From Candidatus Thorarchaeota archaeon (lineage in GTDB: Archaea; Asgardarchaeota; Thorarchaeia; Thorarchaeales; Thorarchaeaceae): DNA of 41,694 nucleotides. Shown here one piece after another: positions 41 to 31,539 of this stretch. The notes under the pieces were generated by a model. It was not told where the DNA came from. It ran no database searches and saw only the letters and a list, made by a program, of their open reading frames with translations. The translations under genes and the position numbers were made by a program. Location of the stretch: positions 1-41,694 of the forward strand of contig JAEORO010000015.1 in assembly GCA_016840855.1 (NCBI GenBank), given 5' to 3'. Position 1 is the stretch's first letter; the number at the start of each line of letters is the position of its first letter.

Positions 41-358
41 TTCTTAGAACTCCGACGGATGCGTGGTGGTGCGACAGTCTAAGAGGGATTTTCACCCTTT
101 TTTGAGGGATGCAAGACTTGAGTCTATTTTACTCAACTGAGTATATATACGAGCGCCCAATAAATCGAGTCATTCTAACGGTCAGGAAATGAATTCTATG
201 ACACTCTCACAGGAGAGTAATCTTGTCATTCGGAAAAGACGGAGGTATGGAAGTTTCGCAGTTACATAGGTGTTTTAATCGTCTTAACAAATGGCCAAAG
301 GTTTTCAGGACAGTGATAGAACGCGATAAAATCGATGGCATCAATAGGCATGATGGGA

Positions 359-1837
359 TCATGGATTATATGCGAAGGGATGCCTGGCTGAATCTTTTCT
401 CGCAATGATCTCATCCACACTCTGTCGACCTTCAATAGCTCTCCTTAGTGCATGACGAACGGCGATGAAATTGTTGATGTGTACCCTCGTCTTATTCGCT
501 GCGCTTGGATGAACAAACACATTTGCTGCTATCACCAAATCAGGAACTAGTTCCTCGGGTATTATATTGTCAGTAATGGTCCGTCGTACTGCATCAGTCA
601 CTGCTCTTTGAGAGACCTCATAGACCATCTTCTTATGATTCTCAGATGTGATTGTGACTGTTGGTGCAAATATTGTTGTAAGCTCTAAGTCCTTGATAAT
701 ATTTGATTGATGCGTGTCTTCTGTAACTTTTCCTGCATTCTTTAGTGCCTCACTCATTGGGCCATCGCGCATGCCCAAGATGAGGTCAACATGAGCAACT
801 TCATTGCCTCCGCCAAACAGGGCTTCCCCATGAAGTAGAGTAAGATCTGGAATGACATCAGGCACCATTCCAACAGCTTTGGGGTAAGTTTCAGATTCAA
901 TAGAACGGTTCCCCATCTTGAATGTGACAAAGCCACGAGGAATCATCTGAAGATCCTCAAGACATGTCCGAATCTCATCATACATGTCATACCCGAGAAC
1001 ATCACCAATGAGGAGTGGAGGTCTTGAAGGACCTACTTCAACACCCATCATATTTAATGCAGCTTTGACGGCCAGACCGCCTCCATTGTTAACAAAAATA
1101 CGAACTATCTTCTGAATGCTTCTCTGTATGATTCGAGCTTCTTTCAAGTCGCCCGTTGCAAGGGCAGTCTGCATCCTGATATATCTATCAGGAAAGACAT
1201 TTGCACTTGCAAGAATCGCACCATTACAACCAGTTGCAAGTGCAGGTAAGACAACCTCATCATGACCTACCATGACTTGGAAATTCTCAGGTTTTCGCAC
1301 AAGGATAGTGGTCAGATTAATCAAATCGCCACTAGAATCCTTCATGCCTATTATTCCATCAATATCACGCAAACCATCTACGAGGGTCCAGCGCATTTGA
1401 ACTCCTGTCACTTGAGGAATATTATACACAATAATTGGTATATCACTGTTGTTAGCGATTTTTTCGAAATGCTCATAGATCTCTTTTTCTGATGGTTTGA
1501 GGAAATAAGGCGAAACGACAAGTGCTGCATCTGCTCCAAATTCTGCAGCTCTTCGTGTCAATTTAATAGCATCATTCGTGTATGCATGACCAGTGCCTGC
1601 AAGAACTGGGACTCGGCCTTTTGCGGCTTTACAAGCGATACGGATTGCTTCCTCTTTCTCTTCAAATCGCATACTGGTGAACTCCCCTGTGGTTCCACAC
1701 GGGACTATTCCAGTTGCACCACTCTTTATGGTGAAATCTATGAGGTTACGATATTGCTTTTCATTTACACCATTCTTGTCAAAAGGAGTTACAAGTGCCG
1801 GATACACACCTTTGAACCTATATTCATCTACCACCAT
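359..1837 (-). CDS. DapA/NAL-family class I aldolase fused to C-terminal formaldehyde-activating enzyme (Fae) domain
   Basis: GTTGE, YNIP and KDSSG motifs; C-terminal GEALFGGGNEVAHVDLILG...VFVHP...RHPFA resembles Fae; ATG at 1837 follows GGAGGTGA SD overlapping the upstream stop (ORF track starts at 1849). Confidence 0.85.
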   Translation of the reverse strand: MVVDEYRFKGVYPALVTPFDKNGVNEKQYRNLIDFTIKSGATGIVPCGTTGEFTSMRFEEKEEAIRIACKAAKGRVPVLAGTGHAYTNDAIKLTRRAAEFGADAALVVSPYFLKPSEKEIYEHFEKIANNSDIPIIVYNIPQVTGVQMRWTLVDGLRDIDGIIGMKDSSGDLINLTTILVRKPENFQVMVGHDEVVLPALATGCNGAILASANVFPDRYIRMQTALATGDLKEARIIQRSIQKIVRIFVNNGGGLAVKAALNMMGVEVGPSRPPLLIGDVLGYDMYDEIRTCLEDLQMIPRGFVTFKMGNRSIESETYPKAVGMVPDVIPDLTLLHGEALFGGGNEVAHVDLILGMRDGPMSEALKNAGKVTEDTHQSNIIKDLELTTIFAPTVTITSENHKKMVYEVSQRAVTDAVRRTITDNIIPEELVPDLVIAANVFVHPSAANKTRVHINNFIAVRHALRRAIEGRQSVDEIIARKDSARHPFAYNP

Positions 1838-1839
1838 AT

Positions 1840-3237
1840 TCACCTCCAAATACCTGAAAGAGCGCTCTCAACAGCTTGCTGCGTTGCGTTCGTTATCTCA
1901 CGTCTATCTCTTGCATTCAAATCAATATCAAGAGCTAGAATAATTACATCTTCTGTCAAAGTCTTCTTCGGAATCATATCTGATTCCAAGAATGATGTTA
2001 TCGCCTTAGCCGTGCCTGATTGTACAGGTCCATAGAAGAGTGATGCTTGACGCATTGATTCGATTTTTCGTACTGGCATCATCAAGCTGCTAGGTTTTAC
2101 AGCTAGATTTGGTTCAAGAATAACAGTCAAGGCTTCATATCCTATTTTTGGGACAGTCAGAAGTTTAACAAAAGCATGACCGATTTGACTTGTTTTTGGA
2201 CCAGAAACAATACCTACTGATACAGTATCATTAGCAGCACTACTTGTCATAAGATTCGTTGTTTGACCGAAAGCAACTCCTTGACTATCTAGAAACTCAA
2301 GTATCTTGATGTCTTCCTGAACCGGGGCATGCTGAAGTTTTTCAATAACACCCATCTTTTCAAGCTCGATACGAATCTCCTCTTTGATTTCAGGAGTAAG
2401 AGTTCCTCCACTATCGAGAGGCATTCTAGCACGACCAGCATTAATCCCCATCATTCTCAAGGCAGCTTTCACGGGTGGTGCCGCACCATGCTTGAGGACA
2501 AGTCGAGCAAAGGTTTGCGCGGACTTCTGAAGTTCTGAAGCCTCCTCTATTCTTCCATCCTTAGCCAACTTCATGATTTCAAGCCAGACATGAGGTATAA
2601 CATTAGCAGATGCCATAATTGCTGCATTTACTCCGGCTGCAACTGCAGAGAGAAAGCACTCATCTGCACCAATTATGACCTCTATTTTGCCCTTTAGCTT
2701 CTGAATAAGTTCAAGAATATAAGGCACACTTCCGCTGCTGTCTTTTATGCCAACAATATTATCCAATTCTGCTAGATCTTCAACAACATTAGAATTGAGA
2801 ACCCCTAGGGTGCATTGAGGAATATTGTACATGATTACCGGGAGGTTTCCATTATTAGCAACTTGTGCGTAATGCTCATAGTATCCCTTGTCTGTCGGAC
2901 GTAGGTAATAGGGTGAAATGACAAGTGCCGCATCGTATCCTAAATCAGCTGCGAACTTAGTGAGAGCGACGGTTGCACGAGTACTGTGTTGACCTGTACC
3001 CGCAATAATAGGTACACGACCATCAACATATTTCACAGTGAGTTTTAACATCTTCTTGCGTTCTTCTGTTCTTAGATAGGAGAACTCACCAGTAGTGCCT
3101 AACGTTACGACTCCAGTAGCTCCTTTTTCAATAGTATAATCAATCACCTGTTTGTACCCATCTTCACCGATATCACCATCACGCGTAAAGGGGGTCACAA
3201 GAGCGGGCATTACTCCTTCGGGCTTGAACTTCCTCAA
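1840..3237 (-). CDS. Second DapA-family aldolase fused to a partly degenerate Fae-like domain
   Basis: GTTGE, YNIP, KDSSG; C-terminal GHAF...ILEPNLAVKPSSLMMP...FYGPVQSGTAKAI...IP resembles the central Fae segment; TTG start with GGTGA SD. Confidence 0.8.
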   Translation of the reverse strand: MRKFKPEGVMPALVTPFTRDGDIGEDGYKQVIDYTIEKGATGVVTLGTTGEFSYLRTEERKKMLKLTVKYVDGRVPIIAGTGQHSTRATVALTKFAADLGYDAALVISPYYLRPTDKGYYEHYAQVANNGNLPVIMYNIPQCTLGVLNSNVVEDLAELDNIVGIKDSSGSVPYILELIQKLKGKIEVIIGADECFLSAVAAGVNAAIMASANVIPHVWLEIMKLAKDGRIEEASELQKSAQTFARLVLKHGAAPPVKAALRMMGINAGRARMPLDSGGTLTPEIKEEIRIELEKMGVIEKLQHAPVQEDIKILEFLDSQGVAFGQTTNLMTSSAANDTVSVGIVSGPKTSQIGHAFVKLLTVPKIGYEALTVILEPNLAVKPSSLMMPVRKIESMRQASLFYGPVQSGTAKAITSFLESDMIPKKTLTEDVIILALDIDLNARDRREITNATQQAVESALSGIWR

Positions 3238-3358
3238 GGAATCACCGAAACCTCCAGCTTTAAAGTGGGTATAAATGGCCTTCGATTTGTGAGAGTATGA
3301 AGAAAGAGTGTTTCAATGAATAGAAGTCGCTATATGATACTGTTGCGAGTGAAATGTT

Positions 3359-3688: not shown

Positions 3689-6136
3689 TTATGCGATATC
3701 AGCTCTTCGAGCTGCATAAACAAGGGATTCATTGAAGTACTTACCTACAATCGCACATATAGCAGGTCCTATAACATAGTTGATTTCACCGGGCATTAGT
3801 TCCTTTAGATTTGTCTTGGAGGTCAATTTACCTCTTCTTTTAAGTATCCCAATCTCGCGCTCAACAGTAGACTTTGCCTTATCCCAAGACATCGGTTCAA
3901 CACCACGACCCTCGCCAATTAATCCCTCTTTAATCTCGAATAGACTCCGCATTATGAATACTGAAAGATTATCCATGTCTGTAGAATCCTTCATGAAGTT
4001 CCCTCCATGTTGTGGGCATTTCACATCACTAGGCACAGATCCGCAAGCACTGCATATCTTGCGTCCTCTGCCTGTCTTAATGTAGTATGCTAATAGATTC
4101 GCACATTTTGTTGTGTCATTTGGTGTCCACTCAAGACCAGAGGTTCCAACTCTACTTATTGCTCGAAAGACTGTGCGTGCTTTGTTGTGTAAGTACATCA
4201 AAACATCAATGCCTTCTTTCTTTTCCTCAATTCTTCGTTTCTCTTTTTGCTTAGCTTCGAAGGCAAATTCTTCCTTGGCTAGTTTCTCCAAACGTTCTTG
4301 CTTCAAGAACCGTTGCATGATGTCATAGGCTATCGCATAGTTGTCGAACTCCAAATTTGACATATCTAACGAATTGTCAACAATACCCTCAAAGACGGGA
4401 CTTGTAGATATTTCAAGATCTTTTCCAGCTGCTATCATATCCTTATTTGAAAACCGAGCGTGCATCCAGCTGCATATTGTCTTCGCTTCTAACTCAGGAT
4501 AAACAACTTTCATTTCATAGATTCTCATGGAAACAAGATCTATCAGAATCTCTTCCCTGAGGAATTGCATAACGACATCAGTATCTTCGTAGATACTTTT
4601 CAAAAGCGACTTTATTCTAAGCAAGTCCTGCTTTGACCTAATATAAGATTCAACGACTCTTGTAAGATTCGTAAGCATACCAATAGTGAAGTGCCAGATT
4701 AAATCCAGTCTAAGGCTTTGAATTGTTTCTTCTTCAGTTCTTTGTTGACTAAAATCACGGGCTGATGAGATACCAAGAGAACTAAGAGCACCACTTTTCA
4801 CATCTTCGCGCGTTTTTAAAAGCCGGACGATCTCTTCAGGAGGTGGAACGCGTATTTTCTTATTTAGAGCATCAAGCACCTCGGTTTCTATGCCAACGAG
4901 TTTCGAACGATCTTTGGTGAAGAGCTCTATACCGATTTTATCAAGCTCTGTTGCTCGAAGTCCCCTGGATCTGAGCATTCCCTTAACAGGACCATCAAGA
5001 GTGTGTTCTATTTTCTCTAGCGTTTTTAACGAACGTTCGAGCATCTCAAATTCTTCTTTACTAACTCGGGGTTTCTCTGTTTCAGAGGTGTGTTCAGAGG
5101 TCAATGATTTGAGTCCTGGACCAATGATTGATTGATCGCTTATTCCCTTCCTTCGGAGCTGCGCCTTAATTTCATCAACATCAACATTAAGAAAACATGA
5201 GATTGTGTCAAGCGCATGGTTGGGTTCTACGGATAGGATTTCTGCGGCTTTTGTTGTAACAATCATACCGATTCGTGACTCATAACCATCAAGAGTAGTG
5301 GGAATGTCGAATTCATCTTCAAGAGCTTCTAGCAGGTGAATTCTCATCTCATGTGCATTCTTAAGACCCTTCAGAGTATCAACTGGTTTGCAGAATCTCT
5401 CTGTTATTGCTAATGTAATTTCATCCCAGCTCTTGACAGGAATCGATGCATCAATTAAACGTCCCTTGGCATATTCTATTCGTCCAAGAATTTTGTCTAA
5501 GCCCATTCGAAGAATTGTAATTTCAGGAACTTCTGAAGGATGTTCGCGAAGTAATTCATCTCTGAGTGATAACGCACTTTCCTTTAGTCCAGATGCTTTA
5601 ACATATAGCTCTTTTCTCCATTCATCACCCCAACCAGTCACTTCCAAGATTAAATCAATATCATGATTAGGATTGTATTCAGAATGTACTTGTTTCAGAG
5701 TGTCTTTCACCAGATTGATGATTTTTTCTTTGTGAGAAGGAGAGGGACTTGTTCCGCTTAGTTCATCTACAAATCGAATAATCAGCTTACTAGCTAGTTT
5801 TGCTACATCAATTTCTTCTCGTTGTTTGTCCGAAAAGAGTTGACGCACTTCAAGTTCAAGCTGACGTCGTTCTTCATCTCCTAATTCATCCGTCATATCG
5901 CTACCAGCGCCAGGTTCCTCAGATGGAGTGAGAAGACGAATGCCTTGATAGCTATGTAAATAGAATGCAGCAAAGAAGGAAAAAACATCCTCAAGGGGTT
6001 GAGAGTCCTTAAGAAGCTCATGGAACAACTGTCGGTCTCTAGTGCTTCGCATATGTGAGGCAAGTGCTTCTCTGAGTAGAATTTCTTTTCCGGCCTCACT
6101 CATTTGACGTGTTTTTAAAACCCAAGAACTTGCCAC
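3689..6136 (-). CDS. Large helical hypothetical protein with C-terminal CxxC-x8-CxxH zinc-finger-like motif
   Basis: 815-aa ORF, GTG start with GAGGTGA SD overlapping the upstream stop; CSACG...CPQHG. Confidence 0.75.
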   Translation of the reverse strand: MASSWVLKTRQMSEAGKEILLREALASHMRSTRDRQLFHELLKDSQPLEDVFSFFAAFYLHSYQGIRLLTPSEEPGAGSDMTDELGDEERRQLELEVRQLFSDKQREEIDVAKLASKLIIRFVDELSGTSPSPSHKEKIINLVKDTLKQVHSEYNPNHDIDLILEVTGWGDEWRKELYVKASGLKESALSLRDELLREHPSEVPEITILRMGLDKILGRIEYAKGRLIDASIPVKSWDEITLAITERFCKPVDTLKGLKNAHEMRIHLLEALEDEFDIPTTLDGYESRIGMIVTTKAAEILSVEPNHALDTISCFLNVDVDEIKAQLRRKGISDQSIIGPGLKSLTSEHTSETEKPRVSKEEFEMLERSLKTLEKIEHTLDGPVKGMLRSRGLRATELDKIGIELFTKDRSKLVGIETEVLDALNKKIRVPPPEEIVRLLKTREDVKSGALSSLGISSARDFSQQRTEEETIQSLRLDLIWHFTIGMLTNLTRVVESYIRSKQDLLRIKSLLKSIYEDTDVVMQFLREEILIDLVSMRIYEMKVVYPELEAKTICSWMHARFSNKDMIAAGKDLEISTSPVFEGIVDNSLDMSNLEFDNYAIAYDIMQRFLKQERLEKLAKEEFAFEAKQKEKRRIEEKKEGIDVLMYLHNKARTVFRAISRVGTSGLEWTPNDTTKCANLLAYYIKTGRGRKICSACGSVPSDVKCPQHGGNFMKDSTDMDNLSVFIMRSLFEIKEGLIGEGRGVEPMSWDKAKSTVEREIGILKRRGKLTSKTNLKELMPGEINYVIGPAICAIVGKYFNESLVYAARRADIA

Positions 6137-6142
6137 CAGCTA

Positions 6143-8812
6143 TCACCTCAGAAATGTGTTCCCAACTGAAACTGTCAGCTCGTTTACTCCGTGTTGAAAT
6201 GTCACAAGGTATAGTAATTCATTCTCCTTAGGATCTCGCAAATACATGCGCGCAACTCGCGGAAGAAGCTTTCCAAGACCCCTCACTTTTGCCCCCATGA
6301 GGTACTCGATGAATTCATCGCCTATGTCAAGTCCAATCATCGAAGCTGCTCCAATACCTTCTGCTTGAAGTCTAAGAACTCGTTTGGCAAAGGTGGCTTC
6401 CATTTCTTTCTCCCGTTCCTTCAGTTGATTCAGCCTACTCTGGAGAAGATCTCGTAGCTCGACGAAGTATTTGAGGGAAGAATCTGGTTCAGGTTTTGGA
6501 GGTGAAGATATTTCTTCTTTGACAGGATATTGCATCCGAATTTCATGTAGCTCTGCATCTATAGGAGAAGGTTTTACGGGTTCTGTTGGTGGTAAAGGAA
6601 TAACAGCCTCAGAGGTCAATGTTTCAGGATATTCTTCTTCCATGACTTCTGGAGTCCTAGCCATTTGGGCGGCTTGCTCGGCTTCATATCGTTCTAGTTG
6701 CTCCATATGATTCCTCAGAGCAATCTCATATTCCCGCATTCTCGCCTCATATTCTTGGGTCTTCTGCATAATTAGCGCTTCACGTCTTGCATTGTGAGCA
6801 AGAATGGCTTCGTTTTCTTCTTGGATAACTTGGCATTCATGTTCCCATTCGTGTATTTTTGATAGGTAGATCTGTTCTCGCTGATCAGCTTCAAACTTAG
6901 CTCGATCAACCATAGCACTTGGAGTGACTGTTTCTCCAACAATCTCATGGATTGAGTTTAATAATTCTAGAAGCGCTTCTGAACGTGATATTGATTCATT
7001 TAAGCCAGTCTTGTAGCTATAGACCCATTCCATTGCTTCTTTTTTCCACTCATCAGGCCGTTCTCCAGCACCTTCAATAGCAGCCTCAAGTTCTGTGACA
7101 AGATTGGTTTGTTCAGATAACATCTTGTCAATGATGCGACGAATCAATGGCTTAGAGAGGAGAGTATCGGCTACATCTGGAATAGTATCAGAAACAAGCT
7201 CCTGAAAATTTTCAAGAAGAGTTAACATTGCTTTTCCGTGTTCTGTTAGTTCCTCGGAATTAGGCAGAGAATATTTCTGAATAATCTCACTCTTAGCAAT
7301 TTCAGCCACATTCTCGAAACCAATCAGCTCCCATATGTTGATTGCATTGAAAGAGTCGATTAGCTTCCTAGTAATTACATCCATGAGTTGTTTGAAATCA
7401 CTATACTTGGATCCCTCAAATTCCTCTTTTGAAAAAGCCGCGTTCAATTGTGCTTGAATTTCACTGTAGAATAAATCGAATAATGTTAAATCTGTAGAGC
7501 TGATATTGCCTTGGAGGGTTTCGTTTTTGAAATCTTGGAGAGCTGTGAAGAATGCTTTCTTTGCCGCATTTGTTACAAGATACTGATTAAGCTCCTTTGA
7601 AAAGTATTGAGAAACTCGTTTGGCATAAACAATCGCATATCTCATTGTAGCTTTGAGCTCCCAAGCTCGAATCTCACCAGAACTTGTGAACTCACGTGAA
7701 ACTGAGTTCATTATGCAATTTACAATTTCCATCGCCAAGGTGTTTTTTATACCGGAAGAAACCTCGCTCCGCGAAGAAATCCCAGAAATCAATGCATTTT
7801 TGTGATTCTCGATTGTAGAAGACTTTCCAGAGCCAAGATGTTCTTCAACTATGTACTCCAGAGAATTCACCGATTCTACAAGATATTGGATAAACTCATC
7901 AATACGAGGTTTTAAGGAATCGATATTAGCCAAAGAAATCTCTCGCTGACCAAGAAAGGTGCCTAGTGCTCCAACAACCCCATTAACAATCTCAGCTTCT
8001 TCAACAGCATAGGCATAGTAGTTAAGCTCACTTAGAAGAGCTTGACCAGTTTCAGGTACGACTTTTGTTAAGATTTCAATAGCACTAGGTGTCAAAACTC
8101 GCCGCTTGAAATGAGCTACGAGTTTTTCATCTGATTCATTTGGTAACTTGAATTCAAGACTTTTACGTCCTACTATCTTCATTCCTGGAGGTTGAAGTGT
8201 GAAATCGTCCGCTACAATCATTTTCGCAATAAAGTCAACATCAACATGATCTTGTTTGACTTGTAAAGAATCCCAAGATCCTTGAAATCTGCGATCTATC
8301 ATGTCAACAAAGAGTACACTATTCAATCGGTCTGCAAATTTATTCAAAACAGTGAGACCTTCCAAGTCATAGTTCAGCTGGTTGTTGATAACTGCACTCT
8401 CGATGTCAGAAATCTTCTTTGATACGACTTTCATATAATCGTTAATCTTGAATGGATCGACAACCCCCTTTTCCCAACTCAGTACACAAACGTGAGAACC
8501 AACTCCGCCTTCGGCACCACCAGCGACGACAAGCTGTTCCGGGAGCACACCAGGACTTGGAGTCCGATCGAGATTCCATTCTATTGAGAGAAGTTCTAAT
8601 CCTTCAGATGACATCAGTGTGTCACGGATTTTAAAAATTAATGGGATTATATTCATGGAAATAGATTCAGAGTGTTGTTCTAACATCGTTCCAGCACCAA
8701 TCGCACTACCAATTGGGTAACCAAGTCCGGATGATACTCCTAAAACAGAGGCAGATGCCATTCGAATAGCTTCAACCGTACTTGATGCTTGTTCGTTTCC
8801 ATGATTAGACAT
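6143..8812 (-). CDS. Large hypothetical protein with helical core, coiled coils and Pro-rich linker
   Basis: Long ORF; likely ATG at 8812 with GGAGA upstream (track start 8911 overlaps the neighbour); heptad E/Q/R-rich segments flank PLPPTEPVKPSP...PPKPEP. Confidence 0.75.
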   Translation of the reverse strand: MSNHGNEQASSTVEAIRMASASVLGVSSGLGYPIGSAIGAGTMLEQHSESISMNIIPLIFKIRDTLMSSEGLELLSIEWNLDRTPSPGVLPEQLVVAGGAEGGVGSHVCVLSWEKGVVDPFKINDYMKVVSKKISDIESAVINNQLNYDLEGLTVLNKFADRLNSVLFVDMIDRRFQGSWDSLQVKQDHVDVDFIAKMIVADDFTLQPPGMKIVGRKSLEFKLPNESDEKLVAHFKRRVLTPSAIEILTKVVPETGQALLSELNYYAYAVEEAEIVNGVVGALGTFLGQREISLANIDSLKPRIDEFIQYLVESVNSLEYIVEEHLGSGKSSTIENHKNALISGISSRSEVSSGIKNTLAMEIVNCIMNSVSREFTSSGEIRAWELKATMRYAIVYAKRVSQYFSKELNQYLVTNAAKKAFFTALQDFKNETLQGNISSTDLTLFDLFYSEIQAQLNAAFSKEEFEGSKYSDFKQLMDVITRKLIDSFNAINIWELIGFENVAEIAKSEIIQKYSLPNSEELTEHGKAMLTLLENFQELVSDTIPDVADTLLSKPLIRRIIDKMLSEQTNLVTELEAAIEGAGERPDEWKKEAMEWVYSYKTGLNESISRSEALLELLNSIHEIVGETVTPSAMVDRAKFEADQREQIYLSKIHEWEHECQVIQEENEAILAHNARREALIMQKTQEYEARMREYEIALRNHMEQLERYEAEQAAQMARTPEVMEEEYPETLTSEAVIPLPPTEPVKPSPIDAELHEIRMQYPVKEEISSPPKPEPDSSLKYFVELRDLLQSRLNQLKEREKEMEATFAKRVLRLQAEGIGAASMIGLDIGDEFIEYLMGAKVRGLGKLLPRVARMYLRDPKENELLYLVTFQHGVNELTVSVGNTFLR

Positions 8813-8892
8813 ATGTAGACTCTCCTTGATGAATTGAAAGTCGAGAGATATTTCAGAACCACATCGCAATCTTTTGAATCTAGCTCGGTCAG

Positions 8893-9843
8893 CTATTCTA
8901 CTGTAGTCCAAACTCCATTTCCTAGGTTTCGTACTAATCCAGCTTCACTTAAACTGATTAATGTCACGTGCAATGTTGTCGTGAGTAATGCATCATAGCT
9001 CAATGTGATAGGTACACTTCGTGATTGTTTAATATCAAAAACAAGCTGTTCAAGGTCTGCATCCCCTCGAGCACTTAGCAATGTTAACACAGTATCTTGG
9101 AGGTGTATTACACCATCCCGTACAGCTTCAAATTGAAGTCGAGCATCAGCAAAAATGTGGGGGGAATCATGTGCAGGAAATAGATGGTCAGCTCCTAGTT
9201 TTGATAAGGCTTCCAGTGCAGTTAATTTTGCTATAATACTACCAGTCTTGTCAACATAGAATTTACGAGGGTCATTTGGGAAATTGTTTACTTCATCGCC
9301 TGAGAATAATGCTTTTCGTGTTACATCAAAGAAAGCGCAATGTCCTGCAGAATGCCCGCCAGTATGGATTACTCTGAGAACTGTTTCACCAACTGAGATT
9401 TTTTGTCCGTGAGAGATTAGCTCATCAGCATCTATACCACGATAATTAACACGAAGTGGACCTTTATCGAATTTCATTGAAAATCTTTCAGCTCGATCCA
9501 TTACAAGTCGTTTATTCAAGAAGTCTGCCGGTGTTCGAAGAAGTTCTGCATCATCCTTATGTATCATTATAGGCGCTCCAACTGACTTCTTAAGTCGTCC
9601 AGCTCCAGCGGCATGATCCGGATGACCATGTGTACAAAGAATGCCTACTAGATCATTCTTAGGTTCCAGACCAAGATCCTTTATTGCCTTTTCAAGTCGA
9701 TCCCCTGGATCTCCTGCGGTCCCCGGATCAATCACAAGAACCTCGTTCTCATCAACAATCAAGTAGCTAGCAATAAAGCCAAACTCATCAGCGAACTTTC
9801 CTCGCACAACTTGAATTCCAGGTATAATTTCAGTCGATGCCAT
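8893..9843 (-). CDS. Metallo-beta-lactamase-fold hydrolase (glyoxalase II-like) with probable C-terminal winged helix
   Basis: IDPG, THGHPDH, GGHSAGH, LFSGD and PAHD motifs. Confidence 0.9.
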   Translation of the reverse strand: MASTEIIPGIQVVRGKFADEFGFIASYLIVDENEVLVIDPGTAGDPGDRLEKAIKDLGLEPKNDLVGILCTHGHPDHAAGAGRLKKSVGAPIMIHKDDAELLRTPADFLNKRLVMDRAERFSMKFDKGPLRVNYRGIDADELISHGQKISVGETVLRVIHTGGHSAGHCAFFDVTRKALFSGDEVNNFPNDPRKFYVDKTGSIIAKLTALEALSKLGADHLFPAHDSPHIFADARLQFEAVRDGVIHLQDTVLTLLSARGDADLEQLVFDIKQSRSVPITLSYDALLTTTLHVTLISLSEAGLVRNLGNGVWTTVE

Positions 9844-11776: not shown

Positions 11777-13669
11777 TTAGGAGTGGGCTTTAGTCCACTC
11801 CATTGAGAGTCTTTTGATTGTTTTCTCCGTCGGGAGACCTGTTTCTAAATCCCAGCCTCTAAGTTTGTAATATTCGTCAAGCATGGGATCAAGATCAACA
11901 GTCTGTCCCTTCCCTGGGCCCTCAGGCATCGGCTCTTTAGTAAACCTATCAGGAAGTCTGTCATCCTTGCGTGTGATTCCTTCGCGGTTGTTGAAAAGAC
12001 GCTTCAGTGTTATCTGACGTTCTGCAATCTCTATTAGATTCTCAACTTTTCCAAGTTTCTTCTCGCCAGTGGCAAGAGGTAACATTTCTGCGAAGTCTTC
12101 CATCCAAAATATTGGTGGCCAAGATACTGAATACCAGCACACAATCAGTGTGTCTCTGATACAATATGAATTCTCACTCTCAAAAACAGCGACTGCTTTA
12201 TACTTCTCAGTATAAGGATCGATTATCTCTGGAAGTTTATCAGCACCCCATCTCTTTGCTGCAACATCCTCGTACCCGAGTTGATCAACAACAACCAAGC
12301 TTCTGAGATGGTCAGCACCTCTTGCGGCTGTAGCATGACCTAGCCCGATGCTCCGATGAGTGCGACCATCCTGACCAGAAACCTCCATCCCTTTTACATG
12401 AATAGCATACTTTTCCGAACCTTTGCCAATGGTGTCAGCAGCTCTCTTGCTTCCTTCTGCTAGAAGATTTCCAAAATCCCTTCGTTCAGCAATCATCTCC
12501 AATAGATGGATAGCTTGTTCTCTATTACCCCATTCTAACTTGAGACCATTAGTGTCATTCTCTGTGATGATACCATTCTCAAAAGCTTCAATCGCAAAAC
12601 CAATTGTTGCTCCTGCAGATATAATATCCATTCCATATCGATTACAAATCTGATTCGCCTTTAGAGTAGTCGCATAATCGTCAATACCAAGTGAGCTACC
12701 AAAAGCCATCAAGCCTTCGTATTCAGGACCCTCCTCAAGGGTACCTGCAAATGGCCCTGTTCGGACATAATTAACCTTCTTACATCCGAGGCTACAACCA
12801 AAACACGCCCTGTCAGAAATTGTAAATCTGGGTCGGATATAATCGCCAGTTAGCTTTTCATAGCCCGGAAAAACTCCTGTACGATGATTATAGGTTGGTA
12901 ATTCGCCAATCTCTTCTTTCACTGCAGTTAAGATCCATGTACCCCATTTGCCCATCTCTCTAGCCTGTGGATTCTCACGCACTCTCAAATGCGCTTTCTT
13001 TGCTAACTCGACAAATCCTTCATGGTCATAAACGTCAATTCCACCATGACCACGGATTGCAATTGCTTTCACATTCTTGGCTCCAAGAACAGCTCCCATA
13101 CCAGTACGCCCAGCTGCTCGGGCGTGATTCACCATCACTGATGCAAACCGAACCAGACGTTCACCAGCAGGACCAATTGCTGCAACTTGAAGATCAGGAT
13201 CTTTGTGTGCTTTTTTGATATTAATGGTGGTCTTATCTGTGGTTGTGCCCCATAACTTAGTAGCATCTTGGAGCTCTAGATGGGAGTCTTCAATGTGGAG
13301 ATATACAGGACTTTCCGACTTACCTTCAATAACCAACAAGTCATATCCAGCATATTTCAATTCAGGACCCAAGAATCCACCAACATGACTTTCACCCCAA
13401 ATACCAGTGAGAGGAGCTTTCGAGATGAAAACAGTCCTGCCACTCATAGGCCACATGGTTCCAGTGATTGGTCCTGTTGCCACAATGAGTTTATTTTCCG
13501 CTCCTAACGGATCAGCACCAGGGGGTAATTCTTCAAAGAGAATCTTGGCACCAAACCCATCTCCGCCTATATAGTCCTTTATCCATTTGGTAGGAAGCGG
13601 CTCAGTGTATAGCTTATTATCAGTTAAGTTAATGCGCAGAATCTTTCCCATGTAGCCGCCTTTAGTCAC
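11777..13669 (-). CDS. aor: Tungsten-containing aldehyde:ferredoxin oxidoreductase (AOR family)
   Basis: GKILRINL, GRTGMGAVLGAKNVKAI, CFGCSLGC, GPEYE, CNRYGMD, DDRLPDRF, YYKLRGWD; likely GTG start at 13669. Confidence 0.93.
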   Translation of the reverse strand: MTKGGYMGKILRINLTDNKLYTEPLPTKWIKDYIGGDGFGAKILFEELPPGADPLGAENKLIVATGPITGTMWPMSGRTVFISKAPLTGIWGESHVGGFLGPELKYAGYDLLVIEGKSESPVYLHIEDSHLELQDATKLWGTTTDKTTINIKKAHKDPDLQVAAIGPAGERLVRFASVMVNHARAAGRTGMGAVLGAKNVKAIAIRGHGGIDVYDHEGFVELAKKAHLRVRENPQAREMGKWGTWILTAVKEEIGELPTYNHRTGVFPGYEKLTGDYIRPRFTISDRACFGCSLGCKKVNYVRTGPFAGTLEEGPEYEGLMAFGSSLGIDDYATTLKANQICNRYGMDIISAGATIGFAIEAFENGIITENDTNGLKLEWGNREQAIHLLEMIAERRDFGNLLAEGSKRAADTIGKGSEKYAIHVKGMEVSGQDGRTHRSIGLGHATAARGADHLRSLVVVDQLGYEDVAAKRWGADKLPEIIDPYTEKYKAVAVFESENSYCIRDTLIVCWYSVSWPPIFWMEDFAEMLPLATGEKKLGKVENLIEIAERQITLKRLFNNREGITRKDDRLPDRFTKEPMPEGPGKGQTVDLDPMLDEYYKLRGWDLETGLPTEKTIKRLSMEWTKAHS

Positions 13670-13670
13670 C

Positions 13671-14180
13671 TTATTCCACTCCACTAGACTCTTGTGCAGT
13701 TCTTTCAATTTCTCTTAGATAACTTGAGATCTTGCTATGGCGATCGATTGAAGGGGCAACAGAAACCTCAGAGTAAGTTATTGCTCCAGTTGGACAAACA
13801 TTAGCACATTCTGGATCACCATTGCAGTGATCACACTTGATTATCTTCATTCTATGAGTGTCTAGCAGAATGACTCCATTCACACATACTCCGACACAGG
13901 ACTTACATAAAATGCATTTGTTCTCATCTAGATATGTCATCTTTGCTATCGGATCCCGGCGTATTGCATATACTGGACAGATATCTACACAAGGAGCAGT
14001 TTCGCAGGGACCACAAACATTGGGTAGGTCTATTCCAAGGTCATCATATCGGACAATCTTAAGTCTTGCAAGACTTGGCTGGAATCGACCTTCTTTTTTT
14101 GCTGAACACGCAAGTTCACAGATGCGGCAACCAGTGCATTTTGTAAAGTCAACGACAAGATGTGATGGCAATAAGTCCAC
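13671..14180 (-). CDS. 4Fe-4S dicluster electron-transfer subunit associated with AOR
   Basis: CTGCRICELAC, CGPCETAPCVDICP, CILCKSCVGVC, KCDHC...CANVCP; directly upstream of aor. Confidence 0.92.
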   Translation of the reverse strand: MDLLPSHLVVDFTKCTGCRICELACSAKKEGRFQPSLARLKIVRYDDLGIDLPNVCGPCETAPCVDICPVYAIRRDPIAKMTYLDENKCILCKSCVGVCVNGVILLDTHRMKIIKCDHCNGDPECANVCPTGAITYSEVSVAPSIDRHSKISSYLREIERTAQESSGVE

Positions 14181-14680: not shown

Positions 14681-15760
14681 CTATTCCACAGGTACAACCC
14701 AATCATGAGGGTCTTCTCGTTCACCTGACTGAATTCCAATTAGATCATCGAAGAGTTGCTGAGTCAATTTACCGGTTTTCCCATTGGCAATCTGATTTGG
14801 CTGGTTCTTGTACCATAAAGACCCAACTGGAGCTATGATTGCTGCGGTTCCACAACCAAACATCTCTAGGACTTTGCCAGTGTGGATACCTTCAATCACC
14901 TCATCAATCGATATTTGTCTCTCATTCACTGAATAGCCATAGTCCGTACATAACGTAAGTACTGAATCACGAGTGACACCGGGAAGAATAGAACCTGAGA
15001 GTGGAGGTGTGGCAACCTCATCGTCAAAGCGGACTACTATGTTCATAGTACCAATCTCTTCTAACCATCTGTGCTCCAGAGCATCTAGCCATAGAACCTG
15101 AGAACATCCAACCTTGGACGCATCTGTTCCAGCAAGTAAACCTGCAGCGTAATTTCCACTTGCCTTTGCTGCACCCGTCCCGCCCTTTACTGCACGAACA
15201 TATTTGTCACTAACAAAAATCTTCACAGGTGCGAATCCTTCCTTGAAGTAAGGACCTACTGGACTAAGTATGATATAGTAAAGATACTCGGCTGAAGGAC
15301 GAACGCCAAGCTTGGGTTCAGTTCCAATCATGGTAGGGCGAATGTAGAGAGAACTACCTGGCACTTCAGGAACCCAATCAGAGTCAATCTTCAGTAACTC
15401 CTTAAGTGAGTGTAAGGCAAAGTCAATATCTAACTTTGGCATCACCATCCGTTCTGCAGATAAATTGAGCCGCTTGAAGTTCATATCGGGTCGGAAAAGA
15501 AGAACACTCTCACCCCTACGATAAGCTTTCATCCCTTCAAAGATTCCCTGTCCATAATGGAGACATAATGCAGCAGGGCTTAGGGAGAGAGAACCGTATG
15601 GATGAATCCTTGCATTAGTCCAATGAACCCCATTATGAATCATTGAAAACATATGATCAGAAAAGATGGTACCAAATGTTACTTGCAAAACATCACTTGG
15701 CTTTTCTTTTCTTTCATCTTTTGGAACAAGGTTGATGTCGATGTTCACTCTCAAGCACAA
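14681..15760 (-). CDS. ilvE: Branched-chain amino acid aminotransferase
   Basis: LHYGQGIFEGMKAY, LYIRP, AKASGNY (PLP Lys), ILPGVTR, FGCGTAA. Confidence 0.95.
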   Translation of the reverse strand: MCLRVNIDINLVPKDERKEKPSDVLQVTFGTIFSDHMFSMIHNGVHWTNARIHPYGSLSLSPAALCLHYGQGIFEGMKAYRRGESVLLFRPDMNFKRLNLSAERMVMPKLDIDFALHSLKELLKIDSDWVPEVPGSSLYIRPTMIGTEPKLGVRPSAEYLYYIILSPVGPYFKEGFAPVKIFVSDKYVRAVKGGTGAAKASGNYAAGLLAGTDASKVGCSQVLWLDALEHRWLEEIGTMNIVVRFDDEVATPPLSGSILPGVTRDSVLTLCTDYGYSVNERQISIDEVIEGIHTGKVLEMFGCGTAAIIAPVGSLWYKNQPNQIANGKTGKLTQQLFDDLIGIQSGEREDPHDWVVPVE

Positions 15761-16565: not shown

Positions 16566-17918
16566 CTATGCGCGATGACCTTGATCACTCATCGCCTCTG
16601 CAACTTTCAGGAAGCCTGCGATATTCGCACCAACGACATAATTGCCCTTCTTACCAAAAAGCTCTGATGTCTTGTATGCATTAGCATGAATGTTCTGCAT
16701 GATTTGGTGCAATTTGGCATCAACCTCTTCACGGGTCCAGAAGAAGCGCTGACTATTCTGAGCCATCTCAAGACCAGAAACTGAAACTCCACCTGCATTA
16801 GCAGCTTTCCCAGGCCCAAAGAGAATATTGTTCTCAATAAAGATTTCAACACCTTCTGGGACTGTGGGCATATTGGCACCCTCACCAACAGCTAGCACAC
16901 CATTATCGACAAGCATTTTTGCTTCCTTTGCGTCGACTTCATTTTGGGTGGCACTTGGAAGTGCAATATCACACTTGAGGCTCCATGGAGTCCCTTCTTT
17001 GGTTTCAGTGTAATCCACCTTGAAGTGCTCAGCATATTCCTTGATGCGGCCTCTTCTAACATTCTTCAAATCCATGATCCATGCTAGTTTTTCTTCATTA
17101 ATACCATCTGGATCGTGAATCCAACCGGTCGAGTCGCTCATTGCAATAACCTTTGCACCTAACTGAATACACTTCTCAGTAGCATATTGAGCAACATTAC
17201 CAGAACCAGAAACCACAGCAATCTTACCTTTCATATCTTCGCCACGAGTCTTGAGCATCTCCTGAACAAAATAGACACAACCAAAACCAGTTGCTTCAGG
17301 TCGAATCAGAGAACCACCCCAACCAGCACCCTTACCAGTTAGGACACAGGTGCCATGATTGTTCGTAATTTTTCGGTATGCACCATATAGATACCCAATC
17401 TCACGAGCTCCTACTCCAATGTCTCCAGCAGGCACATCTATGAATTGTCCAACGTGCCTGTAGAGCTCAAACATTAGACTCTCGCAGAAATTCTCAACTT
17501 CCGCATCTGTCTTGCCTTTTGGATCAAAATCAGATCCACCTTTACCACCACCCATCGGTAGTGTTGTAAGGCTGTTCTTAAAGACCTGCTCAAACCCAAG
17601 GAATTTCAAAACACCTTGTGTGACTGTAGGATGAAAACGAAGACCCCCTTTATAGGGTCCAATGGCAGAGTTGAATTGAATTCTATATCCACGGTTAACC
17701 TGTATCTTGCCATCTCTATCCTTCCAAGGAATACGGAACTGAATAATACGTTCAGGTTCAGTAATTCTCTCAAGGATAGAGTACTCTTCATACTTAGGAT
17801 ATTTTTTGATTGCAGGCTCTAGGGATTCTAGAACTTCTAAAACAGCTTGATGGAAGACCTTTTGATCAGGATCTTTCTCAACAACGCGGTTGTAAACAGA
17901 TTCAATATATTTGTCCAA
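16566..17918 (-). CDS. gdhA: NADP-specific glutamate dehydrogenase
   Basis: GPYKGGLRFHP, MGGGKGGSDFDPK, DVPAGDIGVG, RPEATGFG, SGSGNVA, KAANAGGV; likely TTG start at 17918 (450 aa). Confidence 0.96.
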   Translation of the reverse strand: MDKYIESVYNRVVEKDPDQKVFHQAVLEVLESLEPAIKKYPKYEEYSILERITEPERIIQFRIPWKDRDGKIQVNRGYRIQFNSAIGPYKGGLRFHPTVTQGVLKFLGFEQVFKNSLTTLPMGGGKGGSDFDPKGKTDAEVENFCESLMFELYRHVGQFIDVPAGDIGVGAREIGYLYGAYRKITNNHGTCVLTGKGAGWGGSLIRPEATGFGCVYFVQEMLKTRGEDMKGKIAVVSGSGNVAQYATEKCIQLGAKVIAMSDSTGWIHDPDGINEEKLAWIMDLKNVRRGRIKEYAEHFKVDYTETKEGTPWSLKCDIALPSATQNEVDAKEAKMLVDNGVLAVGEGANMPTVPEGVEIFIENNILFGPGKAANAGGVSVSGLEMAQNSQRFFWTREEVDAKLHQIMQNIHANAYKTSELFGKKGNYVVGANIAGFLKVAEAMSDQGHRA

Positions 17919-18099
17919 AGGAACACACTCACCATTAGTTAACTTCGCATGGGGCGCGTTAGGACTTCCACATAAATCAATCGGAATCGGACCTGAGCAT
18001 GAAAAGCCTCTAAAACTATTGTTTTTATCCATCCAACAAATTCTTTGTAAGACAAACAGTCATTAGTCCTCTTAGTCTATGAAAACTGGGCAGACAGAG

Positions 18100-27667: not shown

Positions 27668-27751
27668 CAGTATCACTTTTAGCTATATTTCCGCGGAAAT
27701 AGAGTGATAGTTACAAATAAGGCTAAGTGTTCATGTAATATAGTGAGTGTT

Positions 27752-28906
27752 TTGATATCGTACATCTCACACCTGGAATGTCCGCAATGCAGAAGAAAGC
27801 ATTCACCTGAAACTATGGCGACATATTGTATTTGCGGATCTCCCCTCTTCGCCATATACAACCTAGATGGTGTACAAGATGCTCTTACAAATAGTGAGTT
27901 TCCCTCAGAAATGAATTCCATGTGGAGATATTCACAACTTCTGCCAGTGAAATCTCCTTCTTGTGTGATTAGTCTTGGTGAAGGATGGACACCTCTAATT
28001 CTATCAAGGCGGCTTGGAAAGCACATTGGTCTCCAGATGCTTCGTATTAAAGATGAAGCCCAAAATCCAACTGCAAGCTTCAAGGACAGAGGTCTCTCTG
28101 CAGCTGTTTCAAGGCATTTCGAACTGGGAGCAAAAGCCTTTGCCCTACCTTCAGCCGGAAATGCTGCAGTTTCTGCAAGTGCATATGCGGCAGCAGCAGG
28201 GCTAGAAGCACATATCTTCATGCCTGATGATACTCCAGAGCCATTCTTTCAGCAATGCGAACTTTTTGGCGCGAAAACAACCAGAGTGAAGGGAACCATA
28301 TCAGAAGCAAGTAAAGTCATGAACGAGCAAAACGGGAACTGGACTGATTTATCGACAACAAAAGAACCCTATCGCGTAGAGGGTAAGAAAACTCTTGGCT
28401 TTGAAATATGTGAACAACTAGGGTGGTCAGTACCGGATGCCATCATCTGTCCAACAGGTGGTGGTACTGCGATTATAGGTATTTGGAAAGCCTTTGATGA
28501 ACTTGAAGCGATTGGATTAATTGGTTCTGAGAGACCTAGAATGTACGCTGCGCAAAGTGGGGGATGTGCTCCTATAGTTCGAGCTATAGAGAAGGGGACT
28601 GATGATATTGAGCCATGGGTAAACGGTGAAACAGAGGCTTTTGGGCTGAGAGTGCCCAATCCATTTGCTGGTAGACTCATACTCAATGTAATAAGGAATT
28701 CAAAAGGAAGTGCAGTGGCTGTAGCTGACCAAGAAATTGGACCCGCTAGGAGGACTGCAGCAAAACTAGAGGGACTCGATTTTTGTCCCGAATCAGCTGT
28801 TGGTATATGCGGACTTTGGAACTTGATTGAGTCTGGTAAGATAGATTATGACGAAGATGTTGTTCTACTTAATACTGGAAGTGGAGCTAAATATACAAAC
28901 CAGTAG
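27752..28906 (+). CDS. thrC: Threonine synthase (PLP fold II) with N-terminal Zn ribbon
   Basis: SLGEGWTPL, NPTASFKDRG, SAGNA, YRVEGKKT, PTGGG, LNTGSG; likely TTG start at 27752. Confidence 0.9.
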   Translation: MISYISHLECPQCRRKHSPETMATYCICGSPLFAIYNLDGVQDALTNSEFPSEMNSMWRYSQLLPVKSPSCVISLGEGWTPLILSRRLGKHIGLQMLRIKDEAQNPTASFKDRGLSAAVSRHFELGAKAFALPSAGNAAVSASAYAAAAGLEAHIFMPDDTPEPFFQQCELFGAKTTRVKGTISEASKVMNEQNGNWTDLSTTKEPYRVEGKKTLGFEICEQLGWSVPDAIICPTGGGTAIIGIWKAFDELEAIGLIGSERPRMYAAQSGGCAPIVRAIEKGTDDIEPWVNGETEAFGLRVPNPFAGRLILNVIRNSKGSAVAVADQEIGPARRTAAKLEGLDFCPESAVGICGLWNLIESGKIDYDEDVVLLNTGSGAKYTNQ

Positions 28907-31474: not shown

Positions 31475-31539
31475 TTGTTCCACCAAGTTTGCCTTACGAT
31501 TCTATCTCCTTACTTGACGCATTTAAGGTATTGTAATCA

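Follow-up and report, generated by a model that had tools for sequence, protein, structure and literature searches.

Tandem aldolase-Fae fusion proteins of a Thorarchaeota-type archaeon carry complementary Fae domains and probably connect a small keto acid with one-carbon metabolism as one two-subunit enzyme

In this study, we analysed a 41,694-nucleotide stretch of DNA (the window) from an Asgard (Thorarchaeota-type) archaeon, the genome of which is 92% complete, and found two coupled genes on its minus strand, A (1840-3237) and B (359-1849), both with a product in which a class I aldolase of the DHDPS family is joined to a domain of the Fae family. The pair probably works as one two-subunit enzyme that connects a small keto acid with one-carbon metabolism. 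In the proposed mechanism, A and B would be the two subunits, each made up of an aldolase barrel of the pyruvate type (class I, Schiff-base Lys) and a domain with the Fae fold, and would share one working Fae-type site at the A/B interface, to which B would contribute its catalytic His/Asp motif as well as its C-terminal arm, and A its PNLxVKP loop together with its YGPxQ segment. The aldolase would convert a 4-hydroxy-2-oxo acid, for which 4-hydroxy-2-oxobutanoate is the best guess, into pyruvate and formaldehyde and back, and the Fae site would join that formaldehyde to an H4MPT-type carrier to give the methylene form, possibly in either direction by analogy with Fae-Hps. This proposal as a whole, namely one two-subunit enzyme in which a split Fae-type site couples an aldolase to C1 transfer to an H4MPT-type carrier, is put forward tentatively, with a confidence a shade short of even.

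The upstream gene, A, encodes 465 aa from TTG 3237, and the downstream gene, B, 496 aa from TTG 1849. Direct reading places the stop codon of A (TGA, 1842-1840) inside the B open reading frame, and a ribosome-binding-like GGAGGTG for B (1841-1847, minus strand) overlaps this stop codon. The start of B is more likely ATG 1837 than TTG 1849, since the resulting 492 aa is the length of most homologues, and A may start at ATG 3210, which is preceded by AAGGAG and gives 456 aa as in many homologues, rather than at TTG 3237. All 120 of the 120 A homologues among the matches listed are fused proteins. Public DNA data sets covering positions 300-3300 of the window come from six studies, and no RNA data set is among those listed.

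In Pfam profile searches, the two proteins scored 256.1 and 259 bits with DHDPS (PF00701, curated cut-off 22.1) and 105.1 and 91.9 bits with Fae (PF08714, cut-off 27), and, considering that all four domain scores lie far beyond the curated cut-offs, chance can be excluded. The aldolase domains lie at 2410-3222 in A (minus strand, residues 6-276, E 4.8e-77) and at 1010-1816 in B (minus strand, residues 12-280, E 3.5e-76), and the Fae-like domains at 1858-2229 in A (minus strand, residues 337-460, E 5.6e-26) and at 374-829 in B (minus strand, residues 341-492, E 4.9e-30). Like DapA/DHDPS, with which they share about 35% identity, both proteins contain GTTGE, the Tyr of YNIP (Tyr133) and the Schiff-base Lys (Lys161); A retains T48/T49, Y137 and K165, and B retains T53/T54, Y142 and K170. 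Among the fused proteins tallied, the Lys161 and Tyr133 equivalents are kept in 62/62 single-copy proteins, 26/26 A-types and 28/28 B-types, and the Thr45 equivalent in all, while the Thr44 equivalent is Thr, or Ser in four. The AF2 model of B (pLDDT 90.1) has a TIM barrel, which Foldseek matches to 2ehh with a target-normalised TM-score of 0.93. Thus, the view of an earlier note on this DNA, made from the letters alone, that each of two coupled genes carries an intact class I aldolase and a C-terminal domain matching Fae, is confirmed, and no publication on a DHDPS-Fae fusion turned up in the literature searches, in agreement with its remark that it knew of no characterised enzyme with this architecture.

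The databases name this protein group DapA, and a reading of A and B as true 4-hydroxy-tetrahydrodipicolinate synthases with an accessory domain has the family on its side: DHDPS proteins are the best structural and sequence neighbours, and the DapA equivalog TIGR00674 gives 238.1 and 227.5 bits, above its cut-off of 206.15. However, the substrate-binding Arg138, present in the aligned solved DHDPS chains (YNIPSRT in 2EHH, YNVPGRS in 1XKY), is replaced by Cys in A (YNIPQCT, 2809-2829, minus strand) and by Val in B (YNIPQVT, 1406-1426, minus strand). YNIPQCT recurs in 115/120 A homologues and YNIPQVT in 102/120 B homologues among the matches listed, and none of the 116 classed fused proteins that were tallied (62 singles, 26 A-types and 28 B-types) retains Arg138, the residue there being Cys in 25 of the 26 A-types and Val in 24 of the 28 B-types. 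A and B further differ from DapA/DHDPS by the added 190-aa Fae domain. The equivalent of Tyr107, a residue contributed across the tight dimer of DHDPS, is Phe in 23/28 B-types, including B of the window (F116), and Tyr in 25/26 A-types and 62/62 singles.

The pathway context also argues against DapA. In the 92% complete host genome, which shows no aspartate semialdehyde pathway, no match to Semialdhyde_dhC (PF02774; aspartate-semialdehyde dehydrogenase, ASD) and no homoserine dehydrogenase were found, both of which were found in 14/14 control genomes; no convincing DapB was found either, the DapB_N match reaching only 31.6 bits in a 344-aa frame. ASD had no match in the Asgard families f12 (0/19), f13 (0/3) and f21 (0/3), although genomes of each hold fusion genes. 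A search of the host genome for a separate dapA, as the earlier note had called for, found none, the sole other DHDPS-family gene encoding a GNTGEF-type protein of 297 aa. The suspicion in that note that loss of the Arg points away from DapA therefore holds: it is very unlikely that A and B are DapA, the accessory-domain reading keeps the faintest probability of those weighed here, and the database name is almost certainly a misnomer. It is borne by hundreds of public proteins of Asgard archaea, Bathyarchaeia and Anaerolineae-labelled bacteria, and thereby skews metabolic reconstructions of these sediment lineages, which are under much discussion.

The Fae domains of A and B, judged from their sequences, are not equivalent but degenerate in complementary ways. 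The A domain keeps LEPNLAVKP and YGPVQ and has neither the His/Asp motif nor the C-terminal arm, whereas the B domain keeps GEALxGGGNEVAHVDL and the C-terminal ..RHPFAY arm, has the PNLxVKP loop deleted and has EVSQ in place of GPAQ. In the alignment to 1y5y, the equivalent of the catalytic His of Fae is H353 in B (codon 791-793, minus strand), which we take to be His22 in Methylorubrum extorquens Fae numbering; it is Ser in A, and is present only for the pair taken together, with His in 27/27 proteins of the H-C class. The loop E375-P382 of A (EPNLAVKP; 2092-2115, minus strand) is (nearly) invariant in the A family. When 117 aligned fused proteins were scored for the His motif, the loop, GPxQ and the C-terminal arm, 62 had a complete Fae domain, every one of them encoded by a single-copy gene, 27 were B-type (His motif and arm without the loop) and 24 were A-type (loop without His motif or arm). 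The remaining four were odd, two being cut by a contig end and two being Bathyarchaeia A-types that retain the His with the Asp changed to Phe. Given this complementary degeneration, which the earlier note had missed, a single heteromeric enzyme is a better reading of the pair than two fusion proteins working in parallel.

A two-chain model of the A and B Fae domains is consistent with such a heteromer. The complex scored 0.88, the best of three controls scoring 0.01, the comparison being with these controls and not with A-A or B-B; the mark set for this score was reached by 58/80 solved complexes and by 2/110 mismatched pairs. The runs agreed in at least 86% of contacts, with a partner pLDDT of at least 87. 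In the modelled interface, residues 373-381, 402-404 and 406 of A meet residues 340-344, H353, D355 and 476-492 of B, so that the retained Fae parts of the two proteins would be brought together, with the A loop predicted to face the B His motif. Within the Fae domain of A, conservation is higher at the interface than elsewhere (entropy 0.76 versus 1.18, p 0.003), whereas in that of B the two do not differ significantly (0.84 versus 0.87). The complex score may partly reflect likeness to the solved Fae homopentamer (1Y5Y/1Y60). Overall, we consider it likely that A and B form a heteromer.

M. extorquens Fae (PF08714; TIGR03126; EC 4.2.1.147) belongs to the same fold family, 1y5y matching B with E 1.2e-19 and A with E 5.5e-11, and its His motif, PNLxxKP loop, GPAQ and C-terminal HPF can be recognised across the pair; in Fae they reside in one chain, whereas neither A nor B has them all. 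This Fae is said to be a homopentamer that binds the cofactor between adjacent subunits, and its His22 reportedly serves as acid catalyst, with Gln88 and the C-terminal arm rearranging. Two kinds of subunit cannot alternate around a ring of five, so the A/B oligomer must differ from that of Fae. The clusters of the protein atlas nearest to the pair are ordinary Fae families, at 0.91.

The two genes are inherited as a pair. In 23 of 24 Thorarchaeota-type loci, the gene immediately upstream of the B-type gene is of A-type, whole or as a fragment, and the 24th locus begins inside B. A tree built from the aldolase columns only, which places 16/16 B-types on one side of one branch (SH-aLRT 97) and 15/15 A-types on one side of another (94), indicates that they probably arose by one old duplication. 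The pair would also be a clear natural example of an active site between subunits that was shared out over two paralogues once the gene had duplicated. The pair is also common in a lineage of 57-67% GC in which the sole organism labels read 'Anaerolineae bacterium'. In Lokiarchaeota-labelled and other Asgard lineages and in Bathyarchaeia, single-copy DHDPS-Fae fusions are found at 44-52% identity. These share the architecture and the loss of Arg138 with the pair, but hold all four Fae features in one chain (62/62), with a Fae domain of about 190 bits, and are presumably homo-oligomers because this domain is complete.

With respect to its logic, the pair resembles archaeal Fae-Hps (NF009833; 5,6,7,8-tetrahydromethanopterin hydro-lyase / 3-hexulose-6-phosphate synthase), which likewise combines Fae with an enzyme of the aldolase type by which formaldehyde is set free or taken up, for capture on H4MPT. 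Unlike in Fae-Hps, in which the partner is a C-terminal HPS, the partner in A and B is an N-terminal DHDPS-family Schiff-base aldolase, and the Fae site is divided over two paralogous subunits; accordingly distinct are the NF009833 scores of only 91.5 and 66.8, from the Fae part alone, against a cut-off of 274. In other Asgard families, open reading frames roughly 400-430 aa long match Fae at around 235 bits and, judged by length, are probably Fae-Hps. In the host genome, no further Fae gene beyond A and B and no HPS above cut-off were found. The H4MPT pathway invoked by the earlier note is borne out in part: Mch, an H4MPT-dependent enzyme, is present in the host genome (428.7 bits) and in 45/46 genomes of its family, but a search of the host genome for beta-RFAP synthase, the canonical starter enzyme and committed step in making methanopterin, found none, and it was found in 2/46 genomes of the family, only one of them above cut-off. 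Considering this near absence, the carrier may not be standard H4MPT. The occurrence of the pair in the Anaerolineae-labelled lineage is a further complication for an H4MPT-type carrier. We infer the formaldehyde and 4-hydroxy-2-oxobutanoate chemistry because of the domain families; use of formaldehyde together with a pterin carrier is possible, albeit we lean slightly against it, and 4-hydroxy-2-oxobutanoate as the keto acid is our best guess and a doubtful one.

The same gap could mean that the pair helps to make the C1 carrier itself in lineages without the canonical starter enzyme, and the pair-bearing families f1 (1/43) and f21 (0/3) are indeed almost without beta-RFAP synthase while Mch is nearly universal in f1. 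However, a pair-bearing genome of another family (G007, f8) has beta-RFAP synthase, families f3, f15 and f16 are without it and yet show no pair among the loci examined, and no chemistry joins a pyruvate aldolase to pterin synthesis, which leaves this idea very little probability.

Alternatively, the aldolase domains alone may be catalytic, acting on another aldehyde (hydroxylated or sugar-derived), while the Fae folds, with no catalytic role, would keep the heteromer together or sense a pterin. Neither Fae domain reaches the cut-off of the Fae equivalog TIGR03126 (118.05 bits), B scoring 117.4 and A 83.8, and the rarity of beta-RFAP synthase in the host family, as well as the occurrence of the pair in Anaerolineae-labelled DNA, would fit this alternative. 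So would a conserved G-[HWYF]-D-E / G-[H/A]-D-E motif: GxDE is a sugar-binding motif of sialic acid lyases, and by this analogy it would suit a hydroxylated aldehyde rather than formaldehyde. The N-acetylneuraminate lyase equivalogs (NF003164, TIGR00683) gave 181.9 and 178.1, below the cut-off of 281. In contrast, the catalytic His is kept in 27/27 B-types and the loop with GPxQ in 24/24 A-types, a selective conservation of mutually complementing active-site parts that would be difficult to account for in a module with a purely structural role. The single-copy forms, moreover, have a complete Fae domain. We therefore regard a non-catalytic Fae domain as unlikely.

Another possibility is that the pair transfers a hydroxymethyl group to some other 2-oxo acid (2-oxobutanoate or 2-oxoisovalerate, for example) and is thus a class I analogue of ketopantoate hydroxymethyltransferase with a methylene-pterin donor. 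The domain logic would be the same as for aldolase-Fae coupling, and the small hydrophobic or Cys residue at the Arg138 site leaves the acceptor unfixed. However, the host genome contains a normal PanB (381.9 bits), so there is no pantoate gap to fill and the ketopantoate idea is lowered, and the characterised DHDPS-family enzymes are, to our knowledge, pyruvate users almost without exception; we consider this possibility quite improbable.

The reaction proposed for the aldolase half of the pair, that of pyruvate with formaldehyde, is also that of the 4-hydroxy-2-oxobutanoate aldolase in the engineered 'homoserine cycle'. The aldolases used there are reportedly promiscuous E. coli enzymes with neither a Fae domain nor a pterin carrier, and we know of no natural dedicated 4-hydroxy-2-oxobutanoate aldolase. 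If the proposal of a split aldolase-Fae enzyme is true, the pair would be a natural aldolase that moves a C1 unit between a pterin carrier and pyruvate, a transfer known to us only from engineered formaldehyde-assimilation pathways. In its most far-reaching form, which we consider improbable, both the pair and its single-copy counterparts in other Asgard archaea and in Bathyarchaeia would be natural dedicated 4-hydroxy-2-oxobutanoate aldolases coupled to a pterin C1 carrier, which would build the homoserine skeleton from pyruvate and Wood-Ljungdahl-derived C1, or run in reverse, and would replace the aspartate semialdehyde / homoserine dehydrogenase pathway, which is missing from most of the host family (homoserine dehydrogenase in 3/46 genomes, ASD-type matches in 11/43).

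The gene neighbourhood was also considered as a guide to the substrate, and its methyl-cycle signal is too weak to name one; no conserved operon partner pointing to 4-hydroxy-2-oxobutanoate or homoserine was seen in the loci compared, and homoserine kinase was not found in the host genome, both of which speak against these compounds. CutA1, an M20 peptidase and two large proteins that match no Pfam family are the only neighbours common to the Thorarchaeota-type loci. Elsewhere, the neighbour genes give hints of a methyl cycle. A GCD14/TrmI-type methyltransferase gene lies 3' of the single-copy fusion in 42/56 non-Thorarchaeota loci and is common to the Bathyarchaeia loci. Among the 44 Anaerolineae-labelled loci with at least 1.5 kb of downstream DNA, a TrmO_N-type gene occurs within 1.5 kb in 16 and adenosylhomocysteinase within the same distance downstream in 13, and a few Anaerolineae-labelled loci have threonine synthase and a CysK/CBS-like gene farther off.

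Two minus-strand ORFs at the start of the window (G+C 41%), the upstream A (1840-3237, 465 aa) and the downstream B (359-1849, 496 aa), had been read in an earlier note as aldolases each fused to a Fae-like domain. Pfam bears this out, with matches far over the cut-offs in both proteins for the DHDPS domain (259 bits in A, 256.1 bits in B) and for the formaldehyde-activating enzyme (Fae) domain (91.9 and 105.1 bits, respectively). The sequence GGAGGTG overlaps the stop codon of A (1842-1840, minus strand) and is followed by an ATG at 1837, from which B has 492 aa, the usual length among its homologues; A has two start candidates, TTG 3237 and ATG 3210, the latter preceded by AAGGAG. Near-identical and related proteins of both carry the source names Thorarchaeota or Promethearchaeota. 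In the window genome (3.36 Mb, 259 contigs, 92% complete) no Fae genes were found besides A and B, and one further DHDPS-family gene, on contig C218, encodes a 297-aa GNTGEF-type protein. Literature searches for such a fusion found no published description of a DHDPS-Fae pair. The pair makes up a genuine two-gene enzyme, widespread and mis-annotated; the known kinds behind it are Fae fusions and DHDPS-family aldolases, and it varies on both.

Judged by alignment, the Fae domains of A and B are complementary halves. B aligns with the solved Fae 1y5y over chain residues 8-168 and keeps both GEALxGGGNEVAHVDL and the C-terminal RHPFA. A aligns over residues 16-137 only, with ANDTVSVGIVSG at the site of the His/Asp motif, and retains LEPNLAVKP and RQASLFYGPVQSG. 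When A and B are compared by BLASTP, their aldolase domains are 42% identical and their Fae domains are not alignable. The sample comprised 80 loci in species genomes plus 13 further ones in Asgard genomes; Fae features were classed in an alignment of 117 fusion proteins, each 440 aa or longer. All four features are present in 62 of the 117, all of them encoded by single-copy genes; their sources are Bathyarchaeia, Atabeyarchaeia, a Lokiarchaeota-labelled cluster and other Asgard families. Another 27 are B-type, with the His motif and C-terminal arm kept and the loop deleted, and 24 are A-type, with the loop and YGPVQ kept and the His/Asp motif and arm absent. The four odd cases are two proteins cut by contig ends and two Bathyarchaeia A-types that keep the His, have Phe for Asp and lack the arm.

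An A-type gene or fragment lies directly upstream of B in 23 of 24 Thorarchaeota-type loci, the remaining locus starting inside B, and a tandem arrangement was also seen at three Bathyarchaeia loci and, within Asgard, in three genomes from two other families. A tree was built from the aldolase columns only and is thus independent of the Fae traits; its rows were subsampled (32 of 63 single-copy rows, 10 Thorarchaeota-type loci). One branch splits off all 16 B-types (SH-aLRT 97) and another all 15 A-types (SH-aLRT 94). Because the aldolase-only tree separates the two types, it points to a single old duplication, after which A and B were inherited together.

The pair is also confirmed in Anaerolineae-labelled (Chloroflexota) DNA. 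The B-type cluster P0248/P0410 bears the NCBI label 'Anaerolineae bacterium', as do all six organism labels among its best 120 relatives, and G+C is 57-67% across the 67 metagenome loci that carry such a gene. Of these, 49 have an A-type ORF upstream, adjoining B in 47 and 3-4 kb off in two; of the other 18, ten start within B or no more than 250 nt from it, and eight were left unclassified. Chloroflexi are named among the bacteria with H4MPT (tetrahydromethanopterin)-linked genes by Chistoserdova 2016 (PMC5020050). In Anaerolineae-labelled loci (L137, L139, L150 and other high-GC ones) the pair is often found beside a TrmO_N-type gene (16 of the 44 loci whose downstream DNA extends for at least 1.5 kb) and an adenosylhomocysteinase gene (13 of the 44), and further along lie threonine synthase, a CysK/CBS-like enzyme, carbamate kinase and heme o synthase.

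Residues 296-465 of A and 305-496 of B were modelled together, with a family alignment for each. The A-B pairing, the only one of A-B, A-A and B-B that was scored, reached 0.88 against 0.01 for the best of three controls. Among reference pairs, 58 of 80 solved complexes attain that mark, as do 2 of 110 mismatched pairs; contact agreement among the runs is at least 86%, with partner pLDDT of at least 87. The modelled interface comprises loop 373-381, Y402-P404 and Q406 of A, and HGEAL 340-344, H353, D355 and the C-terminal arm 476-492 of B, which are the parts that each chain has kept. Since solved Fae is reportedly a homopentamer with its cofactor between adjacent subunits, the model's pass may reflect likeness to that homopentamer. 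In A, conservation is higher at the interface than in the remaining Fae domain (p 0.003); in B it is not.

The AF2 model of whole B (pLDDT 90.1, pTM 0.89) has a barrel that matches DHDPS structures, and Thr44/45, Tyr133 and the Schiff-base Lys are kept in A-types, B-types and single-copy forms alike. In DHDPS, Tyr107 crosses the tight-dimer interface. Its equivalent is Tyr in 62/62 single-copy proteins and 25/26 A-types and Phe in 23/28 B-types, and position 138 is Cys in 49/62 and 25/26, respectively, and Val in 24/28 B-types. Because the groups differ at these positions, A seems to retain the ancestral aldolase state and B to have kept the catalytic residues of Fae. Comparative evidence gives good support to a heteromer whose Fae site is composite, and we infer a division of labour inside an A2B2-type assembly.

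Both proteins pass the NCBI dapA equivalog model (238.1 and 227.5 bits, cut-off 206.15), hence their database name DapA. In DHDPS an Arg binds aspartate semialdehyde. The motif around it reads YNIPSRT in 2ehh and YNVPGRS in 1xky, and at the aligned position B has Val and A has Cys; among the matches listed, YNIPQVT occurs in 102 of 120 B-homologues and YNIPQCT in 115 of 120 A-homologues, and none of the 116 classed fusion proteins has Arg there. The window genome gave no match to the aspartate semialdehyde dehydrogenase (ASD) C-domain or to homoserine dehydrogenase, each present in 14/14 control genomes, and its DapB_N match has 31.6 bits only. The lost Arg, the missing ASD and homoserine dehydrogenase and the weak DapB_N match disfavour a DapA function, so that the earlier view of the proteins as probably not DapA holds. 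Within the window's family, homoserine dehydrogenase was detected in 3 of 46 genomes and ASD-type matches in 11 of 43; the Asgard families f12 (n=19), f13 (n=3) and f21 (n=3) have no ASD-type matches, and fusion genes are present in all three.

Fae-Hps joins Fae to a formaldehyde-handling aldolase activity, and we propose the same logic for the pair. The aldolase half would release or take up formaldehyde beside the Fae site, which would condense it with an H4MPT-type carrier; were pyruvate the nucleophile, the partner compound would be 4-hydroxy-2-oxobutanoate. By this analogy the pair may well exchange formaldehyde between an aldolase and an H4MPT-type carrier site, substrate and carrier both being inferences. 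This reading is favoured by the methenyl-H4MPT cyclohydrolase Mch, present in the window genome and in 45 of 46 genomes of its family, by the finding of neither a free Fae gene nor an above-cut-off HPS in the window genome, and by the small residue that replaces the carboxylate-binding Arg. The G-x-D-E motif of the fusions, which resembles that of sialic acid lyases, counts against it or leaves it open, as do the negative searches for beta-RFAP synthase and homoserine kinase in the window genome. PanB is present, so there is no ketopantoate gap to fill.

The H4MPT pathway expected in this genome is borne out for Mch, and not for beta-RFAP synthase, the committed step of methanopterin synthesis, which was not found there (TIGR00144). 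Two of 46 genomes of the family have a match, one over the cut-off; elsewhere in Asgard it was detected in 39/40 genomes of family f9 and 18/19 of f12. It was also not found in families f3, f15 and f16 despite strong Fae matches there, and the model may therefore overlook divergent forms. Mch without beta-RFAP synthase means either that the starter enzyme is divergent or unrelated, or that the carrier is a different one.

The window genome holds three threonine-synthase-like genes, without detected homoserine dehydrogenase, ASD or homoserine kinase; one of them, a PLP enzyme gene at 27704-28906 (plus strand), scores 165.8 bits, just below the thrC cut-off of 167.1.

Two large minus-strand ORFs with no Pfam match, of 815 aa (3689-6136) and 922 aa (6143-8911), adjoin the pair on its upstream side. 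Among the 24 Thorarchaeota-type loci, a no-Pfam protein of about 820 aa stands beside the pair in 21, and one of at least 692 aa (cut by a contig end) in 17. A GCD14/TrmI-type SAM methyltransferase gene follows the single-copy fusion in 42 of 56 non-Thorarchaeota loci (Bathyarchaeia, L032-L088), and in the Bathyarchaeia locus L067 the two genes abut. Elsewhere in the window, minus-strand genes for an aldehyde:ferredoxin oxidoreductase (11777-13708), a class IV aminotransferase (14681-15760) and a glutamate/leucine-type dehydrogenase (16566-18032) lie near one another, a grouping that fits an amino-acid-fermenting lifestyle. A typical Asgard signature gene, for a protein of the Snf7 (ESCRT-III) family, lies at 30809-31486 (minus strand). 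Two tandem plus-strand paralogues of the inositol-monophosphatase/FBPase family (31591-32403 and 32461-33273, 270 aa each) precede a third ORF of the same length, which encodes an unrelated ParA/NUBPL-type P-loop NTPase.
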